Shown: one piece after another, positions 6,457 to 48,635 of the stretch
How the letters are laid out: each line of letters opens with the position of its first letter
How positions within the stretch are numbered: the stretch's first letter is position 1
Source: Escherichia coli
Lineage (GTDB): Bacteria; Pseudomonadota; Gammaproteobacteria; Enterobacterales; Enterobacteriaceae
Assembly: GCF_009931435.1 (NCBI RefSeq)
Contig: NZ_CP043414.1
Strand: one strand, 5' to 3'
Length of the DNA: 64,000 bases
Notes under the pieces: model-generated
The model's input: the letters and a program-made list of their open reading frames with translations, nothing else
Told to the model about the DNA's origin: nothing
Databases searched by the model: none
Position numbers and translations under genes: made by a program

Positions 6457-7032
6457 TCAAAGCAATTTTTTCGCTAACGTCCAGACCCCGGTATTCGTGG
6501 TGGAAAGCGCCACGACACCGGCGTTAATCGCATTACGCGCATCTTCTTCATCGCACACCAGCCCGCCAGCAATCAGCGGCTGGTGGATTTTCTCCGTTAC
6601 CCAGCCCAGCACTTTAGGCATACAGCCTGGCAGAATTTCAATACAATCAGGATTCGATTGCGCAACCTGCTTATCAATGTTGTGAAAAGAAATCGAGTCG
6701 ACAATAAACAAGCGATGAATACAGAAAAAGCCTTCCGCTCTCGCCGCTTTTAGCATTGACGCTTTGGTACTGATAATGCCGTCCGCCTCGGTCACCAGTT
6801 TCAGAAACTGAATTACTACTTCTTTATTTGATGCGCCTTCCAGCAAATCGACATGAATAAAGGCATATTTCCCGGCACTTTTAATCTTTTTGACGATATG
6901 ACTGATGGTGCAGATATTGCCGTATAACACGGAAATAAACTGGCATTCAGAATCGATTGCCAACTGCAGGCTGGCATTATCTTTAACGGCAGCAATCACC
7001 GGATTCTGGCGGAGCAGGTGTAAGAGGGGCAT
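6457..7032 (-). CDS. ygcP: GlpP-like glycerol-3-phosphate-responsive antiterminator family protein (191 aa)
   Basis: ORF track 6457..7032. Confidence 0.8.
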   Translation of the reverse strand: MPLLHLLRQNPVIAAVKDNASLQLAIDSECQFISVLYGNICTISHIVKKIKSAGKYAFIHVDLLEGASNKEVVIQFLKLVTEADGIISTKASMLKAARAEGFFCIHRLFIVDSISFHNIDKQVAQSNPDCIEILPGCMPKVLGWVTEKIHQPLIAGGLVCDEEDARNAINAGVVALSTTNTGVWTLAKKLL

Positions 7033-7048
7033 AAATTATCCTTATTAT

Positions 7049-7309
7049 TTATCCAAAGCGGTAGGTGATGCCGAATCCGGAAGGCGGATAGCGCCACTGT
7101 TGTAGGTTTTTTTCATCACACAGTAAACGGCAGGTGCCACACTCCAGGCAGCCGCGATAATCAACGCGTAAGTCGCCTTCCGGCGTGAGCGAAAAAAGAC
7201 CAGCCGGACAAGCGTTAATCAACCGTTCTGCCGTCTGGCGCTCAACGGAGTCTGCCGGAACAATATGTGGCGCATCAGCAGCGCGCCAGAGATTACGGGC
7301 TACAGACAT
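7049..7309 (-). CDS. ygcO: Ferredoxin-like protein (FixX family, 86 aa)
   Basis: ORF-track frame 7049..7345; start taken at internal ATG (MSVARNLW...) with AGGAG upstream. C-terminal CxxCxxC cluster (GCLECGTCRLLC). Confidence 0.75.
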   Translation of the reverse strand: MSVARNLWRAADAPHIVPADSVERQTAERLINACPAGLFSLTPEGDLRVDYRGCLECGTCRLLCDEKNLQQWRYPPSGFGITYRFG

Positions 7310-8571
7310 CGAATACTCCTGACAACATCGCCCGCCAGATGCCACAGGCCATGACGACGTAAATGACGCCAGAGCAACTGACGCAGCGGCGGAACAGGTT
7401 TATCACCCTGATCCCATAAATCACGGGAAATATCCTGCATTAACACAGGCCACTTACGGTACCATCCAGGGCGTTGCAAAAGCGCCGGAACATGCTGATA
7501 GCGCTGTAGAACATCCCACAGCAGGCTGCGCTCTACGTTGTAATGATAAAGCGGAAACAGATTTTGCGGCTCGCGGTGCTGGCAGGCGCTTATCAGCGTT
7601 TGTGCCGCCGCCTGTGCGCCAGCCAGCGCCATATCCATGCCGCGCACGGAAATTCCGGTATTGACGCAACTGCGCAACGTATCGCCCACCAGCAGCCAGC
7701 CGTTACCGGCGTATTGCACCGGCATACTGTGCAAGCCACCTTCTGGCACCAGATGCGCACCATACTCCAGTGATTCCGTGTTTTTGATAAGCGGGCGCAC
7801 TGCCGGATGCGTTTTAAAGCGAGCCAGCAGCTCGCTTGCCGGAACACGACTTTGCGTAAGTGAAGAGAGCGGGCAAACAATCCCTAACGAGAGCGTTTGT
7901 TGATTAGTATAAAGAAATGCGCCGCCGGGTAAGTCATCACAGATTCCGCCGCTGAACAGCAACGCTGCGCCTTCGTTATTCTCCAGATGAAAACGTTCTT
8001 CAATAGCGGATGTTTCCAGTGAAAGAACTTCTTTGATCCCCAACGCCATCGCTTCGCCAGCAGGACGAGTCACTAACCCGTGACGCTCAGCCAGGACGCT
8101 GTTGGCACCTTCTGCCAGCGCCACATAACGGGCGCGGAGAATATCGTCACCGCAAATGACACCACACACCCTGCCGTTTTCTTCATACAGCGCATCTACC
8201 GTCGCACCAGGGATGCATTCGACACCTTCTTTTTCGGCTTCGGCAACCAGCCACGGATCGAACCGTGCACGTAATACGCTCCAGGATTCACCGCCGGGCT
8301 GTAAGCTGGAAAACGTCGTTGCGCCATCCGGCGTTAGCAGAGAAAGACTTTCGTGAGTGATGCGTCGTTCAAGAGGCGCGGTCAGGTGAAACTGAGGGAG
8401 GAGTTCCGCGAGCGCATGGGTGTATAAACGCCCGCCGGAAAGGTTTTTACTGCCGGGAATTTCAGCGCGTTCCAGTAACAGAACGGATAAACCTGCCCGC
8501 GCGCAGCGTAAAGCACAAGCGGTGCCTGCTATACCCGCACCAATAATAATAATGTCGCAGTCGTCTTCCAT
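7300..8571 (-). CDS. ygcN: FAD-dependent oxidoreductase (FixC family, 423 aa)
   Basis: ORF-track frame 7300..8601 (GTG); start taken at ATG 8571 (MEDDCDIIIIGAGIAG... dinucleotide-binding motif). Confidence 0.8.
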   Translation of the reverse strand: MEDDCDIIIIGAGIAGTACALRCARAGLSVLLLERAEIPGSKNLSGGRLYTHALAELLPQFHLTAPLERRITHESLSLLTPDGATTFSSLQPGGESWSVLRARFDPWLVAEAEKEGVECIPGATVDALYEENGRVCGVICGDDILRARYVALAEGANSVLAERHGLVTRPAGEAMALGIKEVLSLETSAIEERFHLENNEGAALLFSGGICDDLPGGAFLYTNQQTLSLGIVCPLSSLTQSRVPASELLARFKTHPAVRPLIKNTESLEYGAHLVPEGGLHSMPVQYAGNGWLLVGDTLRSCVNTGISVRGMDMALAGAQAAAQTLISACQHREPQNLFPLYHYNVERSLLWDVLQRYQHVPALLQRPGWYRKWPVLMQDISRDLWDQGDKPVPPLRQLLWRHLRRHGLWHLAGDVVRSIRCL

Positions 8572-14309: not shown

Positions 14310-16967
14310 GTGACTTTCTTTGATTTCTGGGGAAAAACCCGACGTGGCGAGAAAGAGGGTGGCGACGATTATCACCTTCTTTGCTGGCATTCGCTGGATG
14401 TAGCCGCGATAGGCTATTTAATGGTCAAAAACAACTGTTTCGGGCTGGCTGACTATTTTCGTCAATTAGGTTTCGCTGACACGGATCAGGCAGCACAATT
14501 TTTCGCCTGGTTGTTGTGCTGGCACGATACTGGAAAATTTGCCCGCTCATTTCAGCAACTTTACCTGCACCCACAACTCAAGGTTCCGGAAGGCGCAAGA
14601 AAGAATTACGAAAAGATCTCTCATTCAACGCTGGGTTACTGGTTGTGGCATCATTATTTAATTGAATGTGAAGAGTTGCTTCCTTCATCTTCACTCTCTT
14701 TGCGCAAACTTAAACGAGTAATAGATATGTGGATGCCCGTGACGACCGGGCATCATGGTCGGCCTCCTGACCGTATCGATGAACTGGACAACTTTCTGCC
14801 TGAAGACAAAGCTGCCGCACGGGATTTTCTCCTTGAAATCAAGGTACTGTTTCCGCTCATCGAGATCCCTACATTCTGGGATGATGACGAGGGCGTTGAA
14901 CTTATAAAACATTTTTCCTGGTATATCTCTGCAACCGTCGTACTCGCAGACTGGACGGGATCGTCAACGCGGTTTTTTCCACGCGTTGCACAGGCAATGG
15001 ATATTAAAGATTACTGGCAGAAGGCTTTAGTTCAGGCTCAAAACGCATTAACCGTCTTTCCCCCAAAAGCAGAAAGCGCGCCTTTCACTGGAATTAATAC
15101 GCTGTTTCCTTTTATTGAGAACCCAACACCGTTACAGCAAAAGGTGTTGGATCTGGATATCAGCCAGCCAGGACCACAGTTGTTTATTCTGGAAGATGTG
15201 ACTGGCGCAGGTAAAACAGAAGCGGCGCTTATCCTGGCGCACAGGTTGATGTCTGCGGGGAAAGCACAGGGTTTGTTTTTTGGCCTGCCAACAATGGCAA
15301 CGGCCAATGCCATGTACGATAGGCTGGTAAAAACCTGGCTTGCTTTCTATTCGCCACAATCCCGCCCCAGCCTGGTGCTGGCACACAGCGCTCGTTCGCT
15401 AATGGATCGCTTTAACGCATCGCTGTGGTCTGGTGATTTTGTGGGGTCAGAAGAACCGGATGAACAAGCGTTCAGTCAGGGATGTGCGGCCTGGTTTGCT
15501 GACAGTAACAAGAAGGCGTTGCTGGCTGAAATTGGCGTCGGCACGCTGGATCAGGCGATGATGGCGGTGATGCCGTTCAAACATAATAATCTGCGGCTTC
15601 TGGGGCTGAGTAACAAAATCCTGCTAGCCGATGAGATCCACGCCTGTGACGCTTATATGTCGTGCATTCTTGAAGGGCTGATCGAGCGGCAGGCGCGTGG
15701 CGGAAACAGCGTTATTTTGCTTTCTGCTACGTTGTCTCAACAGCAGCGTGACAAACTCGTCGCCGCCTTTGCGCGTGGTGCAGAGGGCCAGCAAGAAGCT
15801 CCGTTGCTGGAAAAAGATGATTATCCCTGGCTGACGCATGTCACGAAATCCGATGTGCATTCGCACCGGGTAGCGACGCGCAAAGACGTTGAGCGCAGCG
15901 TGAGTGTGGGTTGGCTTCATAGCGAACAAGAGTGTATTGCGCGTATCGAATCGGCGGTAAGTCAGGGGAAATGCATCGCCTGGATTCGGAATTCTGTCGA
16001 TGACGCCATCCAGGTTCATCGTCAGCTGCTTGCCCGCGGCGTCATTCCTGCTTCCAGCCTTTCACTTTTTCATAGCCGCTTTGCTTTCAGCGATCGCCAG
16101 CGAATTGAAACGGAGACGCTGGCACGCTTTGGTAAAGAAGACTGTTCACAGCGTGCCGGAAAAGTCCTCATTTGTACTCAGGTCCTGGAGCAGAGCGTCG
16201 ACTGCGACCTGGACGAAATGATTTCCGACCTTGCCCCTGTTGATTTACTGATCCAGCGAGCAGGGCGATTACAGCGACATATCCGCGATATTAATGGTCA
16301 GTTAAAGCGTGACGGTAAAGACGAGCGTCACCCTCCTGTATTGCTGATTCTGGCCCCCGTCTGGAACGACTCTCCGGGTGAAGAATGGTTTGGCTGTGCC
16401 ATGCGTAACAGTGCATTTGTCTATCCCGATCATGGGCGAATCTGGTTGACGCAGCGTGTGCTGCGTGAACAAGGCGCGATTCAGATGCCACACTCAGCCC
16501 GGCTTCTGATTGAATCAGTCTACGGTGAGGACGTGGTAATGCCGGAAGGGTTTGCCCGCAGCGAGCAGGAGCAAGTGGGCAAATACTACTGCGATCGTTC
16601 AATGGCTAATAAGTTTGTGCTGAACTTCAGGCCCGGCTATGCCGCCAATATCAACGATTACCTCCCGGAAAAACTGTCGACACGTCTGGCTGAAGAGTCT
16701 GTTTCCCTGTGGCTGGCTAGCTGTATTGGCGGTGTGGTGAAGCCTTATGCCACCGGTGCACACGCATGGGAAATGAGCGTTGTCAGAGTGCGCCAAAGCT
16801 GGTGGAAAAAACATCGGGATAAGTTTTCTTTACTGGAAGGGGATGCGTTCAGGCAGTGGTGCGTTGAACAGCGGCAAGATCCGGAGATGGCAAACGTGAT
16901 TTTGGTCACCGATGACGAAAGTTGTGGATATTCGGCTACGGAGGGATTGATTGGCAAGGTTGGTTGA
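14310..16967 (+). CDS. cas3: Type I-E CRISPR-associated nuclease/helicase Cas3 (885 aa)
   Basis: ORF track 14310..16967 (GTG start). HD motifs (LLCWHSLDVAA, WHDTGKF), Walker A (GAGKTEAAL) and DExH (DEIH) present. N-terminus resembles Salmonella-type Cas3 rather than K-12 YgcB (from memory). Confidence 0.9.
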   Translation: MTFFDFWGKTRRGEKEGGDDYHLLCWHSLDVAAIGYLMVKNNCFGLADYFRQLGFADTDQAAQFFAWLLCWHDTGKFARSFQQLYLHPQLKVPEGARKNYEKISHSTLGYWLWHHYLIECEELLPSSSLSLRKLKRVIDMWMPVTTGHHGRPPDRIDELDNFLPEDKAAARDFLLEIKVLFPLIEIPTFWDDDEGVELIKHFSWYISATVVLADWTGSSTRFFPRVAQAMDIKDYWQKALVQAQNALTVFPPKAESAPFTGINTLFPFIENPTPLQQKVLDLDISQPGPQLFILEDVTGAGKTEAALILAHRLMSAGKAQGLFFGLPTMATANAMYDRLVKTWLAFYSPQSRPSLVLAHSARSLMDRFNASLWSGDFVGSEEPDEQAFSQGCAAWFADSNKKALLAEIGVGTLDQAMMAVMPFKHNNLRLLGLSNKILLADEIHACDAYMSCILEGLIERQARGGNSVILLSATLSQQQRDKLVAAFARGAEGQQEAPLLEKDDYPWLTHVTKSDVHSHRVATRKDVERSVSVGWLHSEQECIARIESAVSQGKCIAWIRNSVDDAIQVHRQLLARGVIPASSLSLFHSRFAFSDRQRIETETLARFGKEDCSQRAGKVLICTQVLEQSVDCDLDEMISDLAPVDLLIQRAGRLQRHIRDINGQLKRDGKDERHPPVLLILAPVWNDSPGEEWFGCAMRNSAFVYPDHGRIWLTQRVLREQGAIQMPHSARLLIESVYGEDVVMPEGFARSEQEQVGKYYCDRSMANKFVLNFRPGYAANINDYLPEKLSTRLAEESVSLWLASCIGGVVKPYATGAHAWEMSVVRVRQSWWKKHRDKFSLLEGDAFRQWCVEQRQDPEMANVILVTDDESCGYSATEGLIGKVG

Positions 16968-17063
16968 TATGCCTGCGACAGGATTCTCTGAATAGTTGAT
17001 ACACAAAAAAGGATGGAAGGATGGATAACCGACCTGGGATGGTCTTTTTACGAGAGGATGCGT

Positions 17064-18626
17064 ATGAACTCGTTTTCACTTCTGACAACCCCGTGGTTGC
17101 CCGTTCGTTATAAAGACGGAACGACAGGCAAACTGGCGCCAGTCGATCTGGCGGATGAAAATGTTGTCGATATCGCTGCGCCGCGGGCAGATCTCCAGGG
17201 TGCGGCATGGCAGTTTTTGCTGGGACTACTACAAACCAGCTTCGCGCCCAAAAATCACGGTCGTTGGGATGATATATGGGAAGACGGACTGGAAGCTGAA
17301 AAGCTAAGGGAAGCATTGCTGTCTTTAGAACATGCTTTCCAGTTTGGCCCAGATTCCCCTTCATTTATGCAGGATTTCGAGGCGCTTACGGGAGATAAAG
17401 TTCCTGTCGCTTCGTTACTGCCTGAAATTCCCGGCGCTCAAACAACGAAGTTCAATAAAGACCACTTTATTAAGCGTGGCGTGACTGAACACATATGCCC
17501 TCATTGTTCCGCGTTAGCGCTGTTTTCCCTACAGTTAAATGCGCCGTCAGGCGGCAAAGGCTATCGCACCGGTTTGCGCGGCGGTGGGCCAATGACGACG
17601 CTGATTGAATTACAGGAATATCAGGGCAATCAACAAACACCCTTGTGGCGCAAACTGTGGCTCAACGTGATGCCGCAGGATGAATCTGACTTACCGCTAC
17701 CCAAAAAATTTGGCGATCTGGTTTTCCCCTGGCTTGGCCCGACGCGTACCAGTGAACTGGCCGGTGCGGTGGTAACTGATGATCAGGTCAACAAACTCCA
17801 GGCGTACTGGGGAATGCCTCGGCGCATACGTGTTGATTTTAATACCACGACAGTCGGCAACTGCGATATTTGCGGTGAGCAGAGCGACGCGCTCCTGAGC
17901 CTGATGACGACCAAAAATTACGGTGCGAATTATGCCATGTGGCAGCATCCCTTAACGCCCTACCGTATACCACTTAAAGAGGGCGGCGAGCTTTACTCGG
18001 TTAAACCACAACCGGGCGGTTTAATCTGGCGCGACTGGCTAGGACTTATCGAAACGGGTAAGTCAGAAAACAATACGGAACTTCCCGCGCTGGTGGTGAA
18101 ACTCTTTAATGCCAGCAGTCTGAAACAGGCAAAAGTGGGCCTGTGGGGATTTGGCTATGATTTCGACAACATGAAAGCGCGCTGTTGGTACGAACACCAT
18201 TTCCCGCTACTGCTCAATAAAAAAGAAGGCCAGATACCAAAGCTGCGGCTGGCTGCGCAAACGGCTTCACGGATTCTAAGTCTGTTACGGAGTGCATTGA
18301 AAGAAGCATGGTTCTCCGATCCAAAAGGTGCACGGGGTGATTTCAGTTTTGTGGATATCGACTTCTGGAACAAAACTCAGCATCGCTTCCTGAGGTTAGT
18401 GCGTCAAATTGAAGAAGGTCAGGAGCCGGATGAATTACTCAGCAAATGGCAAAAGGAAATGTGGTTATTCGCGCGTCAGGATTTTGACGAGCGGGTATTC
18501 ACTAATCCTTATGAGCCCGTTGATTTGAAACGCGTCATGACCGCGCGCAAGAAATATTTTACAACATCGGCGGAGAAGCAAAGTGCTAAAGCCGCCAGGG
18601 AGAAAAAGCAGGAGGCTGCTGAATGA
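17064..18626 (+). CDS. casA: Type I-E Cascade large subunit Cse1/CasA
   Basis: ORF-track frame 17013..18626; start taken at ATG 17064 (MNSFSLLTTPWLPV...) with GAGG 6 nt upstream. ATG 17058 is an alternative. Confidence 0.8.
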   Translation: MNSFSLLTTPWLPVRYKDGTTGKLAPVDLADENVVDIAAPRADLQGAAWQFLLGLLQTSFAPKNHGRWDDIWEDGLEAEKLREALLSLEHAFQFGPDSPSFMQDFEALTGDKVPVASLLPEIPGAQTTKFNKDHFIKRGVTEHICPHCSALALFSLQLNAPSGGKGYRTGLRGGGPMTTLIELQEYQGNQQTPLWRKLWLNVMPQDESDLPLPKKFGDLVFPWLGPTRTSELAGAVVTDDQVNKLQAYWGMPRRIRVDFNTTTVGNCDICGEQSDALLSLMTTKNYGANYAMWQHPLTPYRIPLKEGGELYSVKPQPGGLIWRDWLGLIETGKSENNTELPALVVKLFNASSLKQAKVGLWGFGYDFDNMKARCWYEHHFPLLLNKKEGQIPKLRLAAQTASRILSLLRSALKEAWFSDPKGARGDFSFVDIDFWNKTQHRFLRLVRQIEEGQEPDELLSKWQKEMWLFARQDFDERVFTNPYEPVDLKRVMTARKKYFTTSAEKQSAKAAREKKQEAAE

Positions 18627-19159
18627 GTATTGTAAAAGAGGAGCACAAAGCCACGCTGCGCAAATGGCACGAGGAATTGCAGGAAAAACGCGGCAATCGT
18701 GCCAGTCTGCGGCGTAGTACGACGGTTAATGATGTTTGTTTGTCAGAAGGGTTTCGTTCTCTGCTGATGCAGACCCACACGTTGTGGAAAGTTGAAGCGC
18801 AAGAGTGGCGTTTTACCGCACTGGCACTGGTCGCTGCAGTTAGCGCCAATGTAAAAGCCATTGATGAACGGCAGCCTTTTGCCGCGCAGCTGGCGGCAGT
18901 AATGTCAGAAGGGCGGTTTTCGCGCCTGTCGGCAGTAAAAACGCCGGATGATTTACTGCGCCAGTTACGTCGCGCGGTCAAATTATTAAACGGTTCCGTC
19001 AATCTTATCTCTTTGGCAGACGATATTTTCCGCTGGTGCCAGGAGAGTGACGACCTGCTCAACCATCACCGCCGTCAGCAGCGGCCAACAGAATTTATCC
19101 GTATCCGCTGGGCGCTGGAATATTACCAGGCTGGCGACGCCGATAACGAACAAAATTAA
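18623..19159 (+). CDS. casB: Type I-E Cascade small subunit Cse2/CasB
   Basis: ORF track; start overlaps the casA stop (ATGA) behind AGGAGG. Confidence 0.85.
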   Translation: MSIVKEEHKATLRKWHEELQEKRGNRASLRRSTTVNDVCLSEGFRSLLMQTHTLWKVEAQEWRFTALALVAAVSANVKAIDERQPFAAQLAAVMSEGRFSRLSAVKTPDDLLRQLRRAVKLLNGSVNLISLADDIFRWCQESDDLLNHHRRQQRPTEFIRIRWALEYYQAGDADNEQN

Positions 19160-19173
19160 TAAAGGACTATCTC

Positions 19174-20229
19174 ATGACGACATTTATTCAGCTCCATTTG
19201 TTAACCGCTTACCCTGCAGCCAACCTTAACCGTGATGACACCGGTGCGCCGAAAACCGTGGTGCTGGGTGGAGCAACGCGTCTGCGCGTTTCCTCGCAAA
19301 GTCTGAAACGTGCGTGGCGCACTTCTGCACTTTTTGAACAGGCGCTGGCGGGCCATATTGGTATTCGTAGTGGGCGTATCGCGCGCGAGGCAGCAACTAT
19401 CATGATTGAGAAAGGAATCGAAGAAAAAAAAGCCATCGAATGGGCGGCAGATATTGCCGATTATCTTGGTAAAGCCAAAAAAGACAAAAAAACAAAAGAT
19501 CCGCTCACTAACGCTGAAACTGAACAGCTCGTCCATATCAGCCCTGCAGAATTTGACGCCGTAAAAGCGCTGGCCCATCAACTGGCAGAAGAAAAGCGCG
19601 CGCCAAAAGAGGACGATCTCGCTTTGTTACGTAAAGATCGTATGGCGGTAGATATCGCCATGTTTGGTCGTATGCTGGCGAATAAACCCGAGTTTAATGT
19701 TGAAGCCGCCTGTCAGGTCGCGCACGCGTTTGGTGTCAGTGAAACGATTGTCGAAGATGATTTTTTCACCGCCGTTGATGATTTGCGCCAGGCCTCTGAA
19801 GATGCTGGTGCAGGGCATCTTGGTGAAACTGGGTTTGGTTCTGCGCTGTTCTACACCTATATCTGCATTGATAAAGATCTGCTGGTCGAAAACCTCGGCG
19901 GTGACGAAGCATTAGCTAATCAGACCCTGCGCGCCTTTACGGAAGCAGCGTTTAAAGTTTCCCCAACCGGTAAACAAAACAGCTTTGCCAGCCGTGCCTA
20001 CGCCTCCTGGGCGCTGGCAGAAAAAGGCACCGAACAACCGCGTTCTCTGGCGGCGGCTTTCTATGAACCCATTAATGGCACACGTCAGTTAGATGTGGCA
20101 GTGCAGCGTATTACAACGCTTCGCGAAAACATGAATACGGTTTACGAACAGAAGACCGAATGCGCAAGTTTTGACGTGATGAACAAACAGGGAAGCATGA
20201 AGGACGTGCTGGACTTTATCTGCGCGTAA
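19174..20229 (+). CDS. casC: Type I-E Cascade backbone subunit Cas7e/CasC
   Basis: ORF track; 351 aa with N-terminal ...AANLNRDDTG... typical of Cas7e. Confidence 0.9.
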   Translation: MTTFIQLHLLTAYPAANLNRDDTGAPKTVVLGGATRLRVSSQSLKRAWRTSALFEQALAGHIGIRSGRIAREAATIMIEKGIEEKKAIEWAADIADYLGKAKKDKKTKDPLTNAETEQLVHISPAEFDAVKALAHQLAEEKRAPKEDDLALLRKDRMAVDIAMFGRMLANKPEFNVEAACQVAHAFGVSETIVEDDFFTAVDDLRQASEDAGAGHLGETGFGSALFYTYICIDKDLLVENLGGDEALANQTLRAFTEAAFKVSPTGKQNSFASRAYASWALAEKGTEQPRSLAAAFYEPINGTRQLDVAVQRITTLRENMNTVYEQKTECASFDVMNKQGSMKDVLDFICA

Positions 20230-20239
20230 GGGGCGGCTT

Positions 20240-20986
20240 ATGAGCCAATATCTGATTTTTCAGCTTCATGGGCCAATGGCATCCTGGGGCGTTGATGCAC
20301 CCGGTGAGGTGCGTCATACCCATGAACTGCCTTCGCGTTCAGCATTGCTGGGGCTGCTGGCTGCCGGGTTAGGGATACGGCGTGATGACACCGAATGCTT
20401 AAACGCGTTTAATCGCCACTATTCACTGGTGGTTTGCGCCAGCCGTAACCCGCGCTGGGCACGGGATTATCACACGGTCCAGATGCCAAAAGAGGTGCGT
20501 AAAGCGCGTTATTTCAGCCGTCGCGAAGAGTTGAGCGACCCTGATCTTCTAAGCGCGATTATCTCCCGGCGCGACTACTACACCGATGCCTGGTGGATGG
20601 TGGCCGTGGCAACAACAGCTGATGCGCCTTACAGCCTCGAACAGTTGCAGGAAGGTTTACGCCATCCGGTTTTTCCGCTTTATCTGGGGCGAAAAAGCCA
20701 TCCGCTGGCGTTACCCCTTGCGCCGTTACTGCTCGAAGGCAACGCGTCTGATGCCTTACGTACCGCATATCAACAGTATCAGGATCGTTTCCACGAACTA
20801 AAAGTCTCACTCCCGAAACTTCAGGATGAATGCTGGTGGGAAGGGGAACACGACGGCCTGGTCGCGAGCAAAATATTACGCCGCCGGGATGTTCCTTTAA
20901 ATCGTCAGCAGTGGCTGTTTGGGGAACGCACTGTCAATCAGGGGCCGTGGCTCAGCAAGGAGGAACCATGTACCTCTCAAGAATAA
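20240..20986 (+). CDS. casD: Type I-E Cascade subunit Cas5e/CasD
   Basis: ORF track; ...LHGPMASWG...SALLGLLAAGLGIRRDD... matches the Cas5e pattern. Confidence 0.85.
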   Translation: MSQYLIFQLHGPMASWGVDAPGEVRHTHELPSRSALLGLLAAGLGIRRDDTECLNAFNRHYSLVVCASRNPRWARDYHTVQMPKEVRKARYFSRREELSDPDLLSAIISRRDYYTDAWWMVAVATTADAPYSLEQLQEGLRHPVFPLYLGRKSHPLALPLAPLLLEGNASDALRTAYQQYQDRFHELKVSLPKLQDECWWEGEHDGLVASKILRRRDVPLNRQQWLFGERTVNQGPWLSKEEPCTSQE

Positions 20987-21614
20987 CCTTACATACCGGC
21001 CAGCTTTCCCCAGCGCAGTTGCTGCATCTGGTGGATCGCGGTGAATATGTGATGCATCAGTGGCTGTGGGATCTTTTCCCTGGCGGCAAAGAAAGGCAAT
21101 TTCTTTATCGTCGGGAAGAACTCCAGGGCGCGTTTCGCTTTTTTGTCCTGTCGCAGGAACGCCCGGCGGAAAGTGAAACGTTCACCATCGAATGCCGGTC
21201 ATTTGCGCCGGAGCTGCGTACCGGACAATCCCTTTTTTTCAACCTGCGAGCGAATCCAACAGTCTGTAAAGCGGGTAAGCGCCACGATCTGCTGATGGAG
21301 GCGAAACGGCAGGTGAGGGGGCAGGCGGAAGGAAGTGATGTCTGGTTGCATCAACAACAGGCGGCGCTGGGCTGGCTGGCTGCGCAGGGAGAGAGAAGTG
21401 GTTTTACACTGCTGGATACCTCGGTCGATGCCTACCGACAACAGCAACTGCGGCGGGAAAATGCCCGGCAACTGATCCAGTTCAGTAGCGTGGATTATAC
21501 GGGGATGCTGACGGTCACCGAGCCAGGGTTATTTCTGCAACGTCTCTGCCTGGGGTATGGCAAAAGCCGGGCGTTCGGCTGTGGTCTGATGTTAATCAAA
21601 CCCGGAGCAGAGGC

Positions 21615-21618
<4 letters not shown>
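20968..21618 (+). CDS. casE: CRISPR repeat endoribonuclease Cas6e/CasE (216 aa)
   Basis: ORF-track frame 20830..21618; start taken at ATG 20968 (MYLSRITL...) behind AAGGAGG, overlapping the casD 3-prime end. C-terminal GKSRAFGCGLM motif. Confidence 0.85.
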
Positions 21619-22828
<1,210 letters not shown>

Positions 22829-22924
22829 GTTACCCGTTCTTTAAAAATAAGGAAATGTTTGAATTTAGTTGGTAGATTGTTGATGTGGAATAAAATTGTT
22901 TAAAAACAGATACGTATGCTTAGT
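22829..22924 (+). promoter_or_regulatory. CRISPR leader (AT-rich, between cas2 and first repeat)
   Basis: About 96 bp of AT-rich sequence between the cas2 stop and repeat 1; position and composition fit a type I-E leader carrying the array promoter. Confidence 0.6.
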
Positions 22925-24051
22925 GTGTTCCCCGCGCCAGCGGGGATAAACCGTGGATTATGACGCCAGAGAGCTTCCTGTTTGCGTGTTCCCCGCGCCA
23001 GCGGGGATAAACCGCTGGCTAATAACATCCCACTGAATATTATTTCGTGTTCCCCGCGCCAGCGGGGATAAACCGAGGTGTGGCATGCGGGGAATTATGA
23101 TCCGGTAGTGTTCCCCGCGCCAGCGGGGATAAACCGTGACAACGGCCGGCCGCTCTTTTTGCGGTCATGTGTTCCCCGCGCCAGCGGGGATAAACCGATC
23201 ATCGGCATCATCTCGTGATACTCATCCGGCGTGTTCCCCGCGCCAGCGGGGATAAACCGCCCAGGCTTTACGTGAGCTGGCGGATGTGGCCGTGTTCCCC
23301 GCGCCAGCGGGGATAAACCATACGGTCAAGCGATATCAGGGGTACTGTGTCGTGTTCCCCGCGCCAGCGGGGATAAACCGGGCGCCGCATCTTTATCGTA
23401 AAGCATGTAAAGGTGTTCCCCGCGCCAGCGGGGATAAACCGACCGCTCACACCCAGACAAGCGCCACTAACGTGTGTTCCCCGCGCCAGCGGGGATAAAC
23501 CGAACGCCGCATCAGCTAAATACGCTAAAAAAATGTGTTCCCCGCGCCAGCGGGGATAAACCGCGGCTGATACTCAGGAGCAGGCCAGAGAGCGTGTGTT
23601 CCCCGCGCCAGCGGGGATAAACCGTACCACCTGTGTATTGAGTTACGTCGCCGGGGGTGTTCCCCGCGCCAGCGGGGATAAACCGGAGCTTCATCGGTGG
23701 TTCTGGGAGCAACGGGAGTGTTCCCCGCGCCAGCGGGGATAAACCGGCACAAGTGACTACATCAAGGATGGGGAATGGGTGTTCCCCGCGCCAGCGGGGA
23801 TAAACCGATTAACATTGCAATTGAATTGACGCGTATGAGGTGTTCCCCGCGCCAGCGGGGATAAACCGCAGGCAGCACGGCGGGTTTTGCCCGGATATTT
23901 GTGTTCCCCGCGCCAGCGGGGATAAACCGCAAAACCAATAGGTGCTTTCCACATTGCAGAAGTGTTCCCCGCGCCAGCGGGGATAAACCGCTCTCGGTTC
24001 TGGGGTACTGTTACCCATAACTGAGCTCCCCCGCGTCAGCGGGGGAACTCC
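22925..24051 (+). CRISPR. Type I-E CRISPR array: 19 repeats (18 canonical plus one degenerate terminal repeat), 18 spacers
   Basis: 29-nt repeat gtgttccccgcgccagcggggataaaccg at a 61-nt period from 22925; spacers 31-33 nt. Terminal repeat gagctcccccgcgtcagcgggggaactcc is degenerate; one internal repeat near 23292 ends in A instead of G. Confidence 0.95.
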
Positions 24052-44162: not shown

Positions 44163-44819
44163 CTACTTTATTTTATAAAATGACAGCCGCCCGCTTTTCG
44201 GCGATCCGGTATCAATATAAATCTGGTTTGCGAACGTCTGGATGTTATCAAACATCATATGTCCGAAGATAAAGCAGTCGGCGCCGTTTATTTCCTGTAA
44301 CTCGCCTTTGAGCGATTTCAGTACGCGATCAACAGGCCAGAGTAATTCTCTCTCCGCTATTTCTTTGCCAAACTGATATTCAGCACCAGGATAATCAGCA
44401 TGTGCAATGACATATTTTATAATGTCGTTGGTAATTTCAATAATATGCGGAAGGTGATGGAATTTCAGCAACAGATCTATTGCCTCTTGTTGCTCTGAAT
44501 CATTTAAATCGAAAAACCAGTCACCACCGCTGGCAAGCCACATATTTCCATCGCCAGTTTCGAATGCCTCAAGCGCCATCGCTTCATGGTTGCCTTTAAC
44601 GGAGATAAACCAGGGCTGGTTTAACAGGCGTAGCACGTTAAGACTCTCCGGCCCACGATCAATATTATCGCCGACAGAAATAAGTAAGTCGGTTTCAGGA
44701 CAAAAAGATAATTGGTGCAGGCGGGATTGCAATAATTGATAATCTCCATGAATGTCACCTACCACCCAGATATGGCGATAATGAGTGGTTTCAATTTTAC
44801 GATAACGAATATCTGGCAT
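44163..44819 (-). CDS. pphB: Serine/threonine protein phosphatase 2 (218 aa)
   Basis: ORF-track frame 44163..44957; start taken at ATG 44819 (MPDIRYRKIETTHY...); metallophosphatase motifs GDIHGD and GNHE. Confidence 0.85.
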   Translation of the reverse strand: MPDIRYRKIETTHYRHIWVVGDIHGDYQLLQSRLHQLSFCPETDLLISVGDNIDRGPESLNVLRLLNQPWFISVKGNHEAMALEAFETGDGNMWLASGGDWFFDLNDSEQQEAIDLLLKFHHLPHIIEITNDIIKYVIAHADYPGAEYQFGKEIAERELLWPVDRVLKSLKGELQEINGADCFIFGHMMFDNIQTFANQIYIDTGSPKSGRLSFYKIK

Positions 44820-44841
44820 TGATCGCGCTCCGTAAAAAGAA

Positions 44842-45696
44842 TTATTCCGGCTTATGAAACAGAATGGTGTTAATCTCGACATCAGTGATTGCGCCAGCTG
44901 CTTCTGCTTTATGTAACCAGTATAGCGCTTTGTCTTTATCCACACCGTTCTCATCAATGCCCCAGGCGTAAATGCGGCCTAAGGATATTTGGGCATGAGG
45001 TAAATCTTGTGCGGCAGCTTTTTCAAACCAGTATTTAGCCTGTTTAATATCAGCGGGTACACCATCGCCCGTTAAAAAGAGCGTACCATAATTATACTGA
45101 CCAATTTTGTCGCCTTTTTCTGCGGCAAACTTAAGATATGTCGCAGCCTGGAGATAATTCTTTTCCTCGGCTGCGAGGAGCCCTAAATTAGCATGTGCAA
45201 TGGGGTTTCCCTTTTGCGCCGCTTTAACGAGCCAGGATTTTGCTTTATCGATATCATGGAACTTCTCTGGACCAAACTGATAGATATTGGCACAGTTTAT
45301 CTGTGCCTGAAGATTCCCCTGTCTGGCTGATTTCTCATACCAGTGAATGGCATTCTGGTAATCCGGCGGTGTGTCTTCATCTCCCTGATGATATAAAAGC
45401 CCGACATAAAATTGCGCAATGTCATCTCCCTGACTGGCTGCCAGATTAAACCAGTAAAATGCTTTATCGCGGTTTTTAACCCCCGTTACCCCTTCCTGGT
45501 AAACAATTCCCAATCCTTTTTGCGCAGATTTATCGCCGCCTTGTGCCCTTGCGATGATATTTTTCAGGTTTTCCTGTTTGTTTTTAGAATAACGTTGTTC
45601 AGCCTGGATAAGATCATCAAGCGAGGGTTCTTTGGCACAATAACCTGTTAGAGGAAAATGCAAAATTAGTAGAGTAAATAAAATTAACTTTTTCAT
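44842..45696 (-). CDS. Secreted Sel1-like repeat protein
   Basis: ORF-track frame 44842..45705; signal peptide (MKKLILFTLLILHFPLTGYCA) followed by tandem Sel1-type repeats (A..W..KAA.QG..AQ..LG.Y). AT-rich relative to flanking genes. Confidence 0.75.
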   Translation of the reverse strand: MKKLILFTLLILHFPLTGYCAKEPSLDDLIQAEQRYSKNKQENLKNIIARAQGGDKSAQKGLGIVYQEGVTGVKNRDKAFYWFNLAASQGDDIAQFYVGLLYHQGDEDTPPDYQNAIHWYEKSARQGNLQAQINCANIYQFGPEKFHDIDKAKSWLVKAAQKGNPIAHANLGLLAAEEKNYLQAATYLKFAAEKGDKIGQYNYGTLFLTGDGVPADIKQAKYWFEKAAAQDLPHAQISLGRIYAWGIDENGVDKDKALYWLHKAEAAGAITDVEINTILFHKPE

Positions 45697-45769
45697 ACAT
45701 TCCATGAATTAATTGTTGAGTCCTGATTTTAATTATACTCCATCTGTTATTGAGCCAATAATAATTAAT

Positions 45770-45797
45770 AATCCCCGATGGGAAGGCCATCGGGGAT
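45770..45797 (-). terminator. mutS intrinsic terminator
   Basis: atccccgatgg gaaggc ccatcggggat, an 11-bp stem 8 nt after the mutS stop with AT-rich flank. Confidence 0.5.
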
Positions 45798-45804
45798 TAT
45801 GCCA

Positions 45805-48366
45805 TTACAGCAAACTCTTCAAGCGGTAAATCCACTCCAGCGCCTGACGCGGGGTAAGTGAATCCGGGTCGAGATTTTCCAGTGCTTCGACCGCTGGCGA
45901 GGTTTCTTCCGGTACTGACAGCAAAGACATTTGCGTACCATCCACTTGCGTAGCGGCGGCGTTCGGCGAAATGCTTTCCAGTTCACGCAGTTTTTGCCGT
46001 GCGCGCTTAATCACCTCTTTTGGCACGCCCGCCAGAGCAGCAACCGCCAGGCCGTAGCTTTTGCTCGCCGCGCCATCCTGCACACTGTGCATAAAGGCAA
46101 TGGTATCGCCGTGCTCCAGCGCATCAAGATGCACGTTGGCGACGCCTTCCATTTTCTCCGGCAGTTGAGTCAGTTCAAAGTAGTGGGTAGCAAACAACGT
46201 CAACGCTTTAATCTTATTCGCCAGATTTTCAGCGCACGCCCATGCCAGCGACAGACCATCGTAAGTGGACGTTCCGCGCCCAATCTCATCCATCAACACC
46301 AGGCTGTACTCCGTGGCGTTATGCAGAATATTAGCGGTTTCGGTCATCTCCACCATAAAGGTTGAACGCCCGGATGCCAGATCGTCAGCCGCGCCCACAC
46401 GGGTAAAGATACGGTCAATCGGGCCAATCTCGACTTTTTGCGCCGGTACGTAGCTGCCGATATAGGCCATCAGCGCAATCAGTGCAGTCTGGCGCATATA
46501 GGTACTTTTACCGCCCATGTTCGGACCGGTGATGATCAACATGCGACGCTGCGGCGACAGGTTCAGCGGGTTAGCGATAAACGGCTCATTCAGTACCTGT
46601 TCAACCACCGGATGGCGACCTTCGGTAATGCGAATGCCCGGTTTATCAATGAAGGTCGGGCAGGTGTAGTTCAGGGTATAGGCCCGTTCCGCCAGGTTCA
46701 CCAGTACGTCGAGTTCTGCCAGTGCGCTCGCGCTCTGTTGCAACGCCTCCAGATGCGGCAACAGCAGGTCGAACAACTCTTCATAAAGCTGTTTTTCGAG
46801 TGCCAGTGCTTTACCTTTCGAGGTGAGTACTTTGTCTTCATACTCTTTTAGCTCTGGAATAATGTAGCGTTCGGCGTTTTTCAGCGTCTGACGACGCATA
46901 TAGTTGATGGGTGCCAGATGGCTTTGTCCACGGCTGATCTGAATGTAATAACCATGCACCGCGTTAAAGCCGACTTTCAGCGTGTCCAGGCCGGTACGTT
47001 CACGCTCGCGAACTTCCAGACGCTCCAGATAATCTGTCGCGCCGTCAGCCAGCGCTCGCCACTCATCCAGCTCTTCGTTATAGCCTGATGCGATAACACC
47101 ACCGTCGCGTACCAGCACCGGCGGTGTGTCGATGATTGCTCGCTCCAGCAGATCGCGCAGCTCGGCAAACTCGCCCATTTTCTCACGCAGCGCCTGTACC
47201 GGTGCACTATCGACACTTTCTAACTGCGCGCGTAGTTCTGGCAGTTGCTGGAAAGCGTGACGCATACGGGCCAGATCGCGTGGGCGAGCAGTCCGTAAAG
47301 CCAGACGTGCCAGAATACGTTCCAGGTCGCCGACCTGACGCAGTACCGGCTGCAGCTCAGCGGTGAAATCCTGCAATGCGCCAATAGTTTGCTGGCGCTC
47401 AAGCAACACGCGGGTATCGCGCACTGGCATATGCAGCCAGCGTTTCAGCATTCGACTCCCCATCGGCGTTACAGTGCAGTCGAGCACGGAAGCCAGCGTG
47501 TTTTCCGCACCGCCCGCCAGGTTCTGGGTAATTTCCAGGTTACGACGCGTCGCGGCATCCATAATGATGCTGTCCTGCTCACGTTCCATAGTGATAGAAC
47601 GAATATGCGGCAGTGTCGTACGTTGCGTATCTTTCGCATACTGCAACAGACAACCGGCGGCACAAAGTCCGCGCGGCGCGTTCTCGACGCCAAAACCGAC
47701 CAGATCGCGAGTGCCAAATTGTAGATTCAACTGCTGGCGCGCGGTGTCGATTTCAAACTCCCACAGCGGACGACGGCGCAAGCCGCGACGACCTTCAATC
47801 AGCGACATTTCAGCAAAATCTTCTGCATACAGCAGTTCCGCCGGATTAGTGCGTTGCAGTTCTGCCGCCATCGTTTCGCGGTCAGCCGGTTCACTCAGGC
47901 GAAAACGACCAGAACTGATATCCAGCGTCGCATAGCCGAATCCTTTGCTGTCCTGCCAGATAGCAGCCAGCAGGTTGTCCTGACGTTCCTGCAATAGCGC
48001 TTCATCGCTGATGGTGCCCGGCGTAACGATACGCACAACTTTGCGCTCGACCGGCCCTTTGCTGGTCGCCGGATCGCCAATCTGTTCACAAATAGCAACG
48101 GACTCGCCCTGATTCACCAGTTTGGCGAGATAGTTTTCCACCGCATGGTAGGGAATCCCCGCCATCGGGATCGGCTCTCCCGCTGAAGCGCCGCGTTTGG
48201 TCAGTGAAATATCCAGCAGTTGTGACGCACGTTTTGCGTCGTCATAAAACAGTTCGTAAAAGTCACCCATCCGGTAGAACAGCAGGATCTCGGGATGCTG
48301 GGCTTTCAGCTTGAGATACTGCTGCATCATTGGCGTATGGGCGTCAAAATTTTCTATTGCACTCAT
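45805..48366 (-). CDS. mutS: DNA mismatch repair protein MutS
   Basis: ORF track; 853 aa; Walker [10 protein letters not shown]. Confidence 0.95.
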
Positions 48367-48612
48367 GGGGTTATGTCCGGTTCCCTGATATTAAATGGGG
48401 TGTGATGGTTTTTATTTTCGTTGTAATCACATAAGGCGCACATGATACCGGAGTTAATCATTTCAGGGGAAGAAGCGAACGGCGAGTTCTTGATGGTGAT
48501 TCCGGGAAAGATGCTGTTTTGCAGCTTTTGCGTGATGCTTATGAAGCAAGTACGCAAAATTGTATCAGTTGGCGAACCCTTCTTCTTCAGAGCCATAGTC
48601 CCCTTTCAAATT

Positions 48613-48635
48613 AAGTTGTAATATAAATACATCTT
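48613..48635. promoter_or_regulatory. Candidate NsrR operator upstream of ygbA
   Basis: aagttgtaatataaatacatctt resembles the NsrR 11-1-11 inverted repeat; ygbA is a known NsrR-regulon member (established knowledge). Confidence 0.4.

Follow-up and report, generated by a model that had tools for sequence, protein, structure and literature searches.

In a 64,000-nucleotide stretch of Escherichia coli DNA (RefSeq assembly GCF_009931435.1, contig NZ_CP043414.1), referred to here as the window, a gene for a Sel1-like repeat protein is found between mutS and pphB, which raises the question of what kind of protein it encodes and how a gene came to occupy this place. The initial annotation described an exported Sel1-repeat protein as a candidate strain-specific factor and suggested that its gene had been acquired horizontally. 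The analysis leads to a reading to which we assign a probability of about two in three: the product would be a Sec-exported, non-enzymatic binding scaffold that is co-transcribed with pphB, and the gene would occupy a slot behind mutS whose content is moved by recombination through the flanks. The term binding scaffold is used at the level of the protein family.

The coding sequence is located at 44842..45696 on the minus strand (855 bp including the stop codon, 284 amino acids), as follows from the list of open reading frames, the Pfam match and the starts of the orthologues. The frame is open over 44842..45705 on the minus strand and contains an in-frame ATG at 45705, three codons before the one at 45696. 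The second ATG, which begins the sequence MKK, is the start conserved in all orthologues (MK(K/R) across the alignment), and the upstream ATG is probably not used as the start. This 855-bp coding sequence is likewise annotated by RefSeq in related genomes. The product scores 143.5 bits on the Pfam Sel1 profile, for which the cut-off is 30.7 (E=9.7e-43, five scored stretches), which places the protein in the Sel1-like repeat (SLR) family PF08238 of tandem repeats of about 36-44 amino acids that score above the gathering threshold. At the DNA level, repeats inside the coding sequence are spaced by 111 and 219 nt. The exact protein is already present in NCBI and UniRef, where it is labelled as a sel1 repeat family protein or a tetratricopeptide repeat protein, and a literature search found no paper that mentions its RefSeq accessions. 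The Sel1 gene beside mutS is a real, intact and ordinary accessory gene of a family that is already well known. The possibility of a spurious reading frame was considered and rejected on the basis of conservation, dN/dS ratio and Pfam score.

Export of the protein is suggested by its N-terminus. Residues 1-20 (MKKLILFTLLILHFPLTGYC; 45637..45696, minus strand) form a predicted Sec signal peptide according to a heuristic reading of the sequence, with a predicted signal peptidase I site after MKKLILFTLLILHFPLTGYC and before AKEP. The region is composed of MKK, the stretch LILFTLLILHFPL and TGYC, followed by the alanine after the cleavage site, and thus displays a basic n-region, a 13-residue hydrophobic core and small residues at positions -3 and -1. 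In the orthologues of the MK type the same alignment columns are occupied by small residues as well (G or C at -3; C, S or A at -1), whereas the c-region is spaced differently in a group formed by a second E. coli allele (allele B, see below) and Pseudocitrobacter. All orthologues have kept an N-terminus that resembles a signal peptide. We infer that the Sel1 protein is exported and cleaved, and the predicted mature form has 264 amino acids (29.5 kDa) with one cysteine. A lipoprotein was considered as well and rejected: a search of the 11 aligned sequences with a regular expression for a slightly widened lipobox ([LVI][ASTVI][GAS]C) gave no match, and the signal peptide encoded by allele B contains no cysteine. 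Sec export followed by signal peptidase I cleavage would yield a soluble protein of 264 residues, which would act in the periplasm or possibly on the cell surface, as reported for the Sel1 protein EsiB.

Six tandem Sel1-like repeats, encoded at 44890..45531 on the minus strand, were delimited with an AlphaFold model and Foldseek, each corresponding to a helix pair. The model, which was built from 11 orthologues, has a mean pLDDT of 88.5 and a pTM of 0.79 and contains 15 helices, arranged as an N-terminal capping helix pair, the six Sel1-like helix pairs and a C-terminal cap helix; residues 1-23 of the 287-residue open frame are disordered (pLDDT < 50). The stacked helix-turn-helix repeats of an alpha-solenoid are thus present in the predicted model. 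The top 14 Foldseek matches are all crystal structures of Sel1-repeat proteins (E 5e-12 to 8e-9), and the best matches among solved structures, as found with Foldseek and HMMER, are EsiB/c5321, the Oxalobacter Sel1 proteins, LceB, LpnE, SEL1L and HcpC. The description of the product as an exported Sel1-repeat protein at exactly these coordinates is therefore borne out by profile and predicted fold, and for export by the heuristic signal reading. The alignment of 11 sequences contains 81 invariant residues. Conservation is highest in repeats 3-5, each of which has 15-18 invariant residues, and these repeats harbor motifs that do not belong to the repeat consensus (NCANIYQFGP, PIAHANLG and GQYNY). 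This pattern indicates purifying selection and a conserved central surface. If the alpha-solenoid of six repeats serves as a non-enzymatic binding scaffold, a partner protein or peptide would be held in a groove that presumably is formed by these most conserved central repeats.

The upstream neighbour is mutS (45805-48366, minus strand), which is followed by an intrinsic terminator (45768..45800, minus strand) found in the terminator scan and as an inverted repeat, consisting of a hairpin with a 14-bp stem and a T-rich tail; an equivalent hairpin exists in K-12. Between this terminator and the Sel1 start lies an AT-rich leader of 70 nt with a candidate promoter at 45732..45758 (minus strand), composed of a perfect -10 sequence TATAAT (45737-45732) and a weak -35-like sequence TTGGCT (45758-45753) with a spacer of only 15 nt. 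A consensus promoter scan made no call at this position. TATAAT or TAAAAT recurs about 30-40 nt past the mutS terminator in Citrobacter, Pseudocitrobacter, allele B and the mutS-pphB spacer of K-12, and we infer a promoter just after the mutS terminator.

On the downstream side, a spacer of 22 nt (44820..44841, minus strand) separates the Sel1 gene from pphB; it contains GGAG (44831-44828) 8 nt before the pphB ATG, and the terminator scan detected no terminator in it. The corresponding spacers of allele B and Pseudocitrobacter are similarly short (26-28 nt as read from the sequence segments, 22-24 nt by annotated coordinates). The pphB gene (44163..44819, minus strand; Pfam Metallophos) encodes the lambda-type Ser/Thr phosphatase PphB, also called PrpB. 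A terminator hairpin with a 10-bp stem is located in the convergent gap between ygbI and pphB (44136..44161); the scan reported it on the plus strand only, and, being palindromic, it likely ends the Sel1-pphB transcript as well if it works in both directions. Because no terminator lies between the two genes, a two-gene transcript is likely, which would run from just past the mutS terminator to the shared hairpin next to ygbI. The Citrobacter orthologues have no adjacent pphB, and the operon link is therefore not general.

In K-12 the order is mutS, a spacer of 105 bp and pphB, with no gene in between, in agreement with the suspicion in the initial annotation that K-12 lacks a gene at this position. 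The segment of the window without a K-12 counterpart is 945 bp long (44820..45764) and is replaced in K-12 by 66 unrelated bp; the blastn alignment stops at 44819 and picks up again at 45765. A search of the K-12 mutS-pphB spacer for a gene remnant (blastn-short, word size 7) returned chance 8-10-mers and the shared TATAAT only. As the K-12 spacer contains neither remnant nor deletion scar, insertion and deletion are not separable by spacer comparison. The genome 2017-02-2CC, which belongs to the same lineage as the window, likewise has no Sel1 gene and a K-12-type spacer, and its mutS is 98.4% identical to that of the window over the whole gene and 99.0% over a 2.3-kb query.

A Sel1 homologue was found in 193 of 5426 complete E. 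coli genomes (~4%), as compared to 5417 for mutS. The gene thus does not belong to the E. coli core genome, which consists of genes present in nearly all strains, and the earlier description as strain-specific holds. Two alleles can be distinguished: allele A, at least 99% identical to the window copy, occurs in 11 of the 5426 genomes, and allele B in 182. The alleles share 65% identity in DNA and 54% in protein sequence. The allele B copies are at least 99% identical among their carriers, and 180 of the 182 are full length. Outside Escherichia, close relatives (54-68% identity) were found only in Citrobacter (C. enshiensis, C. werkmanii and one multispecies entry), in Pseudocitrobacter and in some metagenomic or other assemblies; the next matches beyond these are generic Sel1 proteins with at most 38% identity. 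A scan of about 100,000 species-representative genomes with two exact peptide patterns, which divergent orthologues could escape, identified only two carriers, C. werkmanii and one Pseudocitrobacter MAG.

In Escherichia, Citrobacter and Pseudocitrobacter alike, all orthologous loci examined have the Sel1 gene directly 3' of mutS; these are the loci of allele A, allele B and C. enshiensis, three loci with the Citrobacter multispecies protein, and those of P. corydidari and two further assemblies. On the downstream side the gene is followed by pphB, whose place in Citrobacter is taken by a different small gene or left empty, and then by the decarboxylase genes, a MarR-family gene and rpoS. Cargo of a classical genomic island or mobile element was considered as an origin and rejected: the list of open reading frames contains no integrase or transposase among the neighbours of the Sel1 gene, no tRNA gene is present between 30 and 55 kb of the window, no direct repeats flank the gene, and no orthologues were found on phages or true plasmids. 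The only matches above 40% identity in the plasmid collection are two records of 4.9 Mb, which evidently are chromosomes.

The low GC content had been taken as a sign of horizontal acquisition. With a GC content of 0.430 and a GC3 of 0.396 the Sel1 gene indeed deviates from the 49 other genes of the window (mean ± SD 0.531 ± 0.029 for GC and 0.560 ± 0.056 for GC3; z = -3.5 and -2.9, respectively) and from its neighbour mutS (GC 0.553, GC3 0.600). The other neighbour, pphB, does not fit the claim that the gene is lower in GC than its surroundings, as it is just as AT-rich (GC 0.426, GC3 0.429), and the low-GC tract is formed by the Sel1-pphB pair (about 44163-45765). All orthologues in Citrobacter and Pseudocitrobacter have GC contents of 0.37-0.43. 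Since pphB, which is present in nearly all E. coli, and all orthologues are equally AT-rich, the low GC content is a trait of this Sel1 family and of the two-gene tract and not evidence for a recent event.

Further evidence on the history of the gene comes from divergence. The core genes of the window are 94-95% identical to K-12 and 99% to strain RMDEC465; on the basis of this divergence, and because one member of the protein cluster is labelled only 'Escherichia sp.', the lineage may represent a cryptic clade. Allele B and the Pseudocitrobacter (P. corydidari) gene share 92.8% nucleotide identity with a dS of 0.22, far below the dS of 0.83 for the adjacent mutS, and 109 of 110 bases are shared by their upstream spacers. 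Allele B has therefore been exchanged between genera. Between alleles A and B the synonymous sites of the Sel1 gene are saturated, whereas mutS shows a dS of 0.29, and the two alleles thus cannot be simple vertical variants. The neighbouring pphB is 88.6% identical to K-12, below the 94-95% of the core genes on its flanks. It is a recombination mosaic in which the first 180 nt are identical to other allele A genomes and the rest is mixed. Horizontal transfer as such is thus supported for the sister allele, whereas the composition argument for it is weak, and a new insertion at a new site is contradicted by the identical position behind mutS in three genera. Because this position recurs at every locus examined, the Sel1 gene is best regarded as an old, patchily kept resident of a variable region. 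The slot after mutS would thus have an old, fast-evolving and dispensable occupant, which is kept in a few Escherichia, Citrobacter and Pseudocitrobacter lineages and whose gain, replacement or loss would proceed through homologous recombination in the conserved flanks rather than through a mobile element. The mutS-rpoS region is described as a recombination mosaic in PMC7232297 and in PMC4209514 (Ewers 2014), and its polymorphism was reported by Herbelin 2000 and Kotewicz 2002, as cited in PMC7232297. In the window the slyA/decarboxylase block occurs together with the ygb block, a combination that corresponds to pattern IV of PMC4209514. The typing scheme of that study concerns the o454-nlpD side, and its retrieved passages name no gene between mutS and pphB.

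Whether the gene is of use to its carriers has to be judged from opposing signals. An allele A variant with a 1-bp deletion in an A-run (nucleotides 453-456 of the coding sequence), which splits the frame into ORFs of 170 and 87 amino acids, occurs on at least 54 public contigs, as compared to 17 contigs read with the exact intact protein; the gene is therefore dispensable. This frameshift and the absence of the gene from more than 96% of E. coli fit a weak or conditional usefulness. Together with the loss or lack of the gene in a relative with a near-identical mutS and the mosaic nature of its flanks, they would also agree with a functionless passenger that is heading for loss and is carried only by its place beside mutS in a recombination hot spot. 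We consider this unlikely, as the decay that it implies is countered by the selection signal: the frame has remained open in orthologues down to 54% identity despite saturated synonymous divergence, the dN/dS ratio is 0.09-0.20 in four comparisons, the 81 invariant residues include the motifs NCANIYQFGP and PIAHANLG, and nearly all allele B copies are intact. These values indicate purifying selection; the dN/dS ratio of mutS is 0.004-0.05, and dN of the Sel1 gene is about ten times that of mutS. The occurrence of synonymous-only differences among six loci was rejected as a sign of selection, since these loci had been picked by exact protein identity and the argument would be circular. Such fast protein evolution would suit a host-facing protein, for example a surface Sel1 protein that, like EsiB, binds SIgA or a different host protein and attenuates the effector functions of the immune system. 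The comparison with characterised Sel1-repeat proteins that the initial annotation had called for does return EsiB/c5321 as the best PDB match, both by sequence (E=1.5e-53) and by fold. EsiB also carries a signal sequence of 23 residues, is not stabilised by disulfides and is reported on the cell surface, and one source names the Pseudocitrobacter orthologue EsiB. Moreover, residues 81-97 (YWFNLAASQGDDIAQFY) align on the SIgA-binding peptide of EsiB (244-VLFSQSAEQGNSIAQFR-260) with 9 of 17 positions identical. The aligned peptide is, however, largely repeat consensus, the generic stretch that links the B helix of a repeat to the A helix of its successor, and residue E251 of EsiB is replaced by serine. 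The overall identity is only ~31% and mostly due to repeat consensus, the protein has 6 repeats in 284 amino acids as opposed to 11 repeats in 490 for EsiB, its gene is found at a different locus, and with dN/dS below 0.2 positive selection is not seen at the whole-gene level. An EsiB-like role is on balance slightly less likely still than a gene with no function.

A role defined by the neighbouring gene was considered as well. A periplasmic Sel1 protein could sense or sequester a partner, similar to ExoR, a Sel1-repeat protein of the periplasm that inhibits the sensor kinase ExoS, while the cytoplasmic phosphatase adjusts the Cpx or a related envelope-stress response; PrpA and PrpB were reportedly linked to Cpx and htrA signalling by Missiakas and Raina in 1997. 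The Sel1 gene precedes pphB by 22-24 nt (annotated coordinates) in allele A, allele B and Pseudocitrobacter, the window spacer contains no terminator, and the initial 180 nt of pphB are co-inherited with allele A. The two proteins would nevertheless reside in different compartments and are connected through gene adjacency, which is lacking in Citrobacter, and in nearly all E. coli pphB is present while the Sel1 gene is not; we regard such joint signalling as quite improbable. A more specific version, a two-compartment module in which the Sel1 protein in the periplasm would trap a signal from the envelope or a sensor domain, again as in ExoR, and co-transcribed PphB would reset the phospho-relay, is by analogy conceivable and slightly more doubtful still; if true, it would give the enigmatic PrpB/PphB a physiological context that most E. 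coli have since lost. The lowest probability is given to an orphan type VI immunity protein of the Tli5b kind, i.e. a periplasmic Sel1 protein that neutralises an incoming phospholipase effector. Such proteins share the signal peptide, about six repeats and a length of roughly 260-290 amino acids, Foldseek does find PA5086, PA5087 and PA5088 (E 3e-5 to 2e-4), a patchy distribution and fast evolution fit immunity genes, and C. enshiensis carries type VI genes upstream of mutS, at a distance of a few kb. In fold, PA5086-PA5088 (TM 0.46-0.50, 17-19% identity) are matched far less well than generic Sel1 proteins, the Sel1 gene is single and not part of an array, and no effector or type VI gene adjoins it in the window or in any Escherichia locus, where the neighbours are mutS and pphB.

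With an exported binding scaffold in a recombining slot behind mutS as the preferred reading, the practical value of the findings is modest, as the Sel1 gene is an accessory gene whose product is already listed in databases as a TPR/Sel1 repeat protein. With its two deeply diverged alleles it does add a further marker, by presence or absence and by allele, to the mutS-rpoS region, which has already been used for typing E. coli lineages. It also illustrates cleanly that Pseudocitrobacter-like bacteria and E. coli can exchange a gene through recombination in the flanks, with no mobile element involved. If binding of a host molecule or action together with PphB were true, the protein would be a lineage-specific factor for colonisation or envelope signalling.

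Among characterised proteins, EsiB/c5321 from uropathogenic E. coli CFT073 (PDB 4BWR), a binder of secretory IgA, has the same SLR solenoid, a signal sequence and the status of an accessory gene in E. coli. An orthologue of EsiB would be expected to have about 490 amino acids, 11 SLRs and high identity to c5321, and in these respects the shorter and more divergent Sel1 protein is a different member of the family. HcpC (PDB 1OUV; Foldseek E=2.9e-9, 22% identity) is likewise of the secreted Sel1-repeat type and similar in size, with 267 residues after signal-peptide cleavage. The repeats of the Helicobacter cysteine-rich (Hcp) proteins are cross-linked by disulfides (PMC3851747), whereas the single cysteine of the mature Sel1 protein does not allow such pairs.

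More distantly related solenoids are found in the Tli5b-type proteins PA5086-PA5088 of P. aeruginosa (PDB 6LCH, 5JKP, 5JJO; chains of 260-264 residues, TM about 0.5), which are periplasmic Sel1-repeat proteins. PA5087 and PA5088 are described in the PDB as immunity proteins; a gene of this type would be expected beside a Tle5/PldB-type effector or in a type VI cluster, whereas the Sel1 gene is located between mutS and pphB. LpnE (6DEH) and LceB (8SXQ) of Legionella and the Sel1 proteins of Oxalobacter formigenes (6OK3, 6ORK, 6UR7) share the fold at 27-34% identity. These are not orthologous to the Sel1 protein described here and differ in secretion route (Dot/Icm in Legionella) and genomic context. 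The Legionella and Oxalobacter Sel1 proteins exert their action on or inside host cells, an illustration of what Sel1 proteins exported by bacteria are capable of.

The Sel1-repeat gene between mutS and pphB also occurs in a disrupted form of the window's own allele, termed A. In loci from other assemblies (L015-L017, nt 7001-7854) a 1-bp deletion in an A-run at CDS nt 453-456 causes a frameshift, by which the gene is divided into two ORFs of 170 and 87 amino acids. This frameshifted allele is present on at least 54 public contigs, versus 17 contigs on which the exact intact protein was read. The other E. coli allele, B, which encodes a protein of 54% identity to that of A, was found in the PLSDB records NZ_CP134663.1 and NZ_CP141089.1; both are E. 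coli sequences of 4.9 Mb and evidently represent chromosomes, not plasmids.

The adjacent pphB gene (44163-44819) is a recombination mosaic. Nucleotides 1-180 are the same as in allele-A genomes, nucleotides 240-360 differ very little from K-12, and the remainder agrees with neither. Over its whole length pphB shares 88.6% identity with K-12, less than the background level of 94-95%. The haplotype lacking the Sel1 gene may likewise have spread through recombination, as suggested by strain 2017-02-2CC, a genome of the same lineage as the window, which carries the K-12-type mutS-pphB spacer despite a mutS gene that differs by 6% from that of K-12. In K-12 this spacer contains an inverted repeat (CCCTGTA...TACAGGG) around a TATAAT hexamer (L003 3690-3760).

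Gene content also varies elsewhere near mutS. In allele-B E. coli genomes a TOBE-domain gene, absent from both the window and K-12, is located between fhlA and ygbA (L002 9880-10308; L026 4237-4665). The slot upstream of mutS differs among genera too: in C. enshiensis it holds genes for type VI secretion and one encoding a Fic-domain protein (L004 1-1283), and in P. corydidari genes for a phage-type integrase and for an HNH-domain protein (L008 1712-3169). Between mutS and ygbA the window has a 59-amino acid ORF (48442-48621, + strand), which corresponds to a small RefSeq 'hypothetical protein' of 44-59 amino acids in related genomes; in one of these RefSeq marks the counterpart as frameshifted. 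Further away lies a type I-E-like CRISPR-Cas locus (14310-23990), whose cas1 and cas2 genes share only about 73% identity with their K-12 counterparts, with an array at ca. 22925-23990 (61-bp period, repeat GTGTTCCCCGCGCCAGCGGGGATAAACCG).

The 6.1-kb ygb block (ygbN to ygbI, 38087-44163) is 98.3-99.6% identical to K-12, the flanking core genes 94-95%, and strain RMDEC465 lacks the block though it is elsewhere 99% identical to the window. Within it, ygbK (40982-42244) encodes 420 amino acids versus 388 in K-12, which together with a 1-nt gap in the blastn alignment suggests a frameshift that would lengthen the C-terminus up to or slightly past the ygbL start. Among the retrieved loci having a Sel1 gene, none showed ygbI adjoining pphB. 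The ygb block looks like an introgressed K-12-type segment. The window thus harbors both this block and the MarR/decarboxylase block (35179-38086), a combination that corresponds to pattern IV of PMC4209514.
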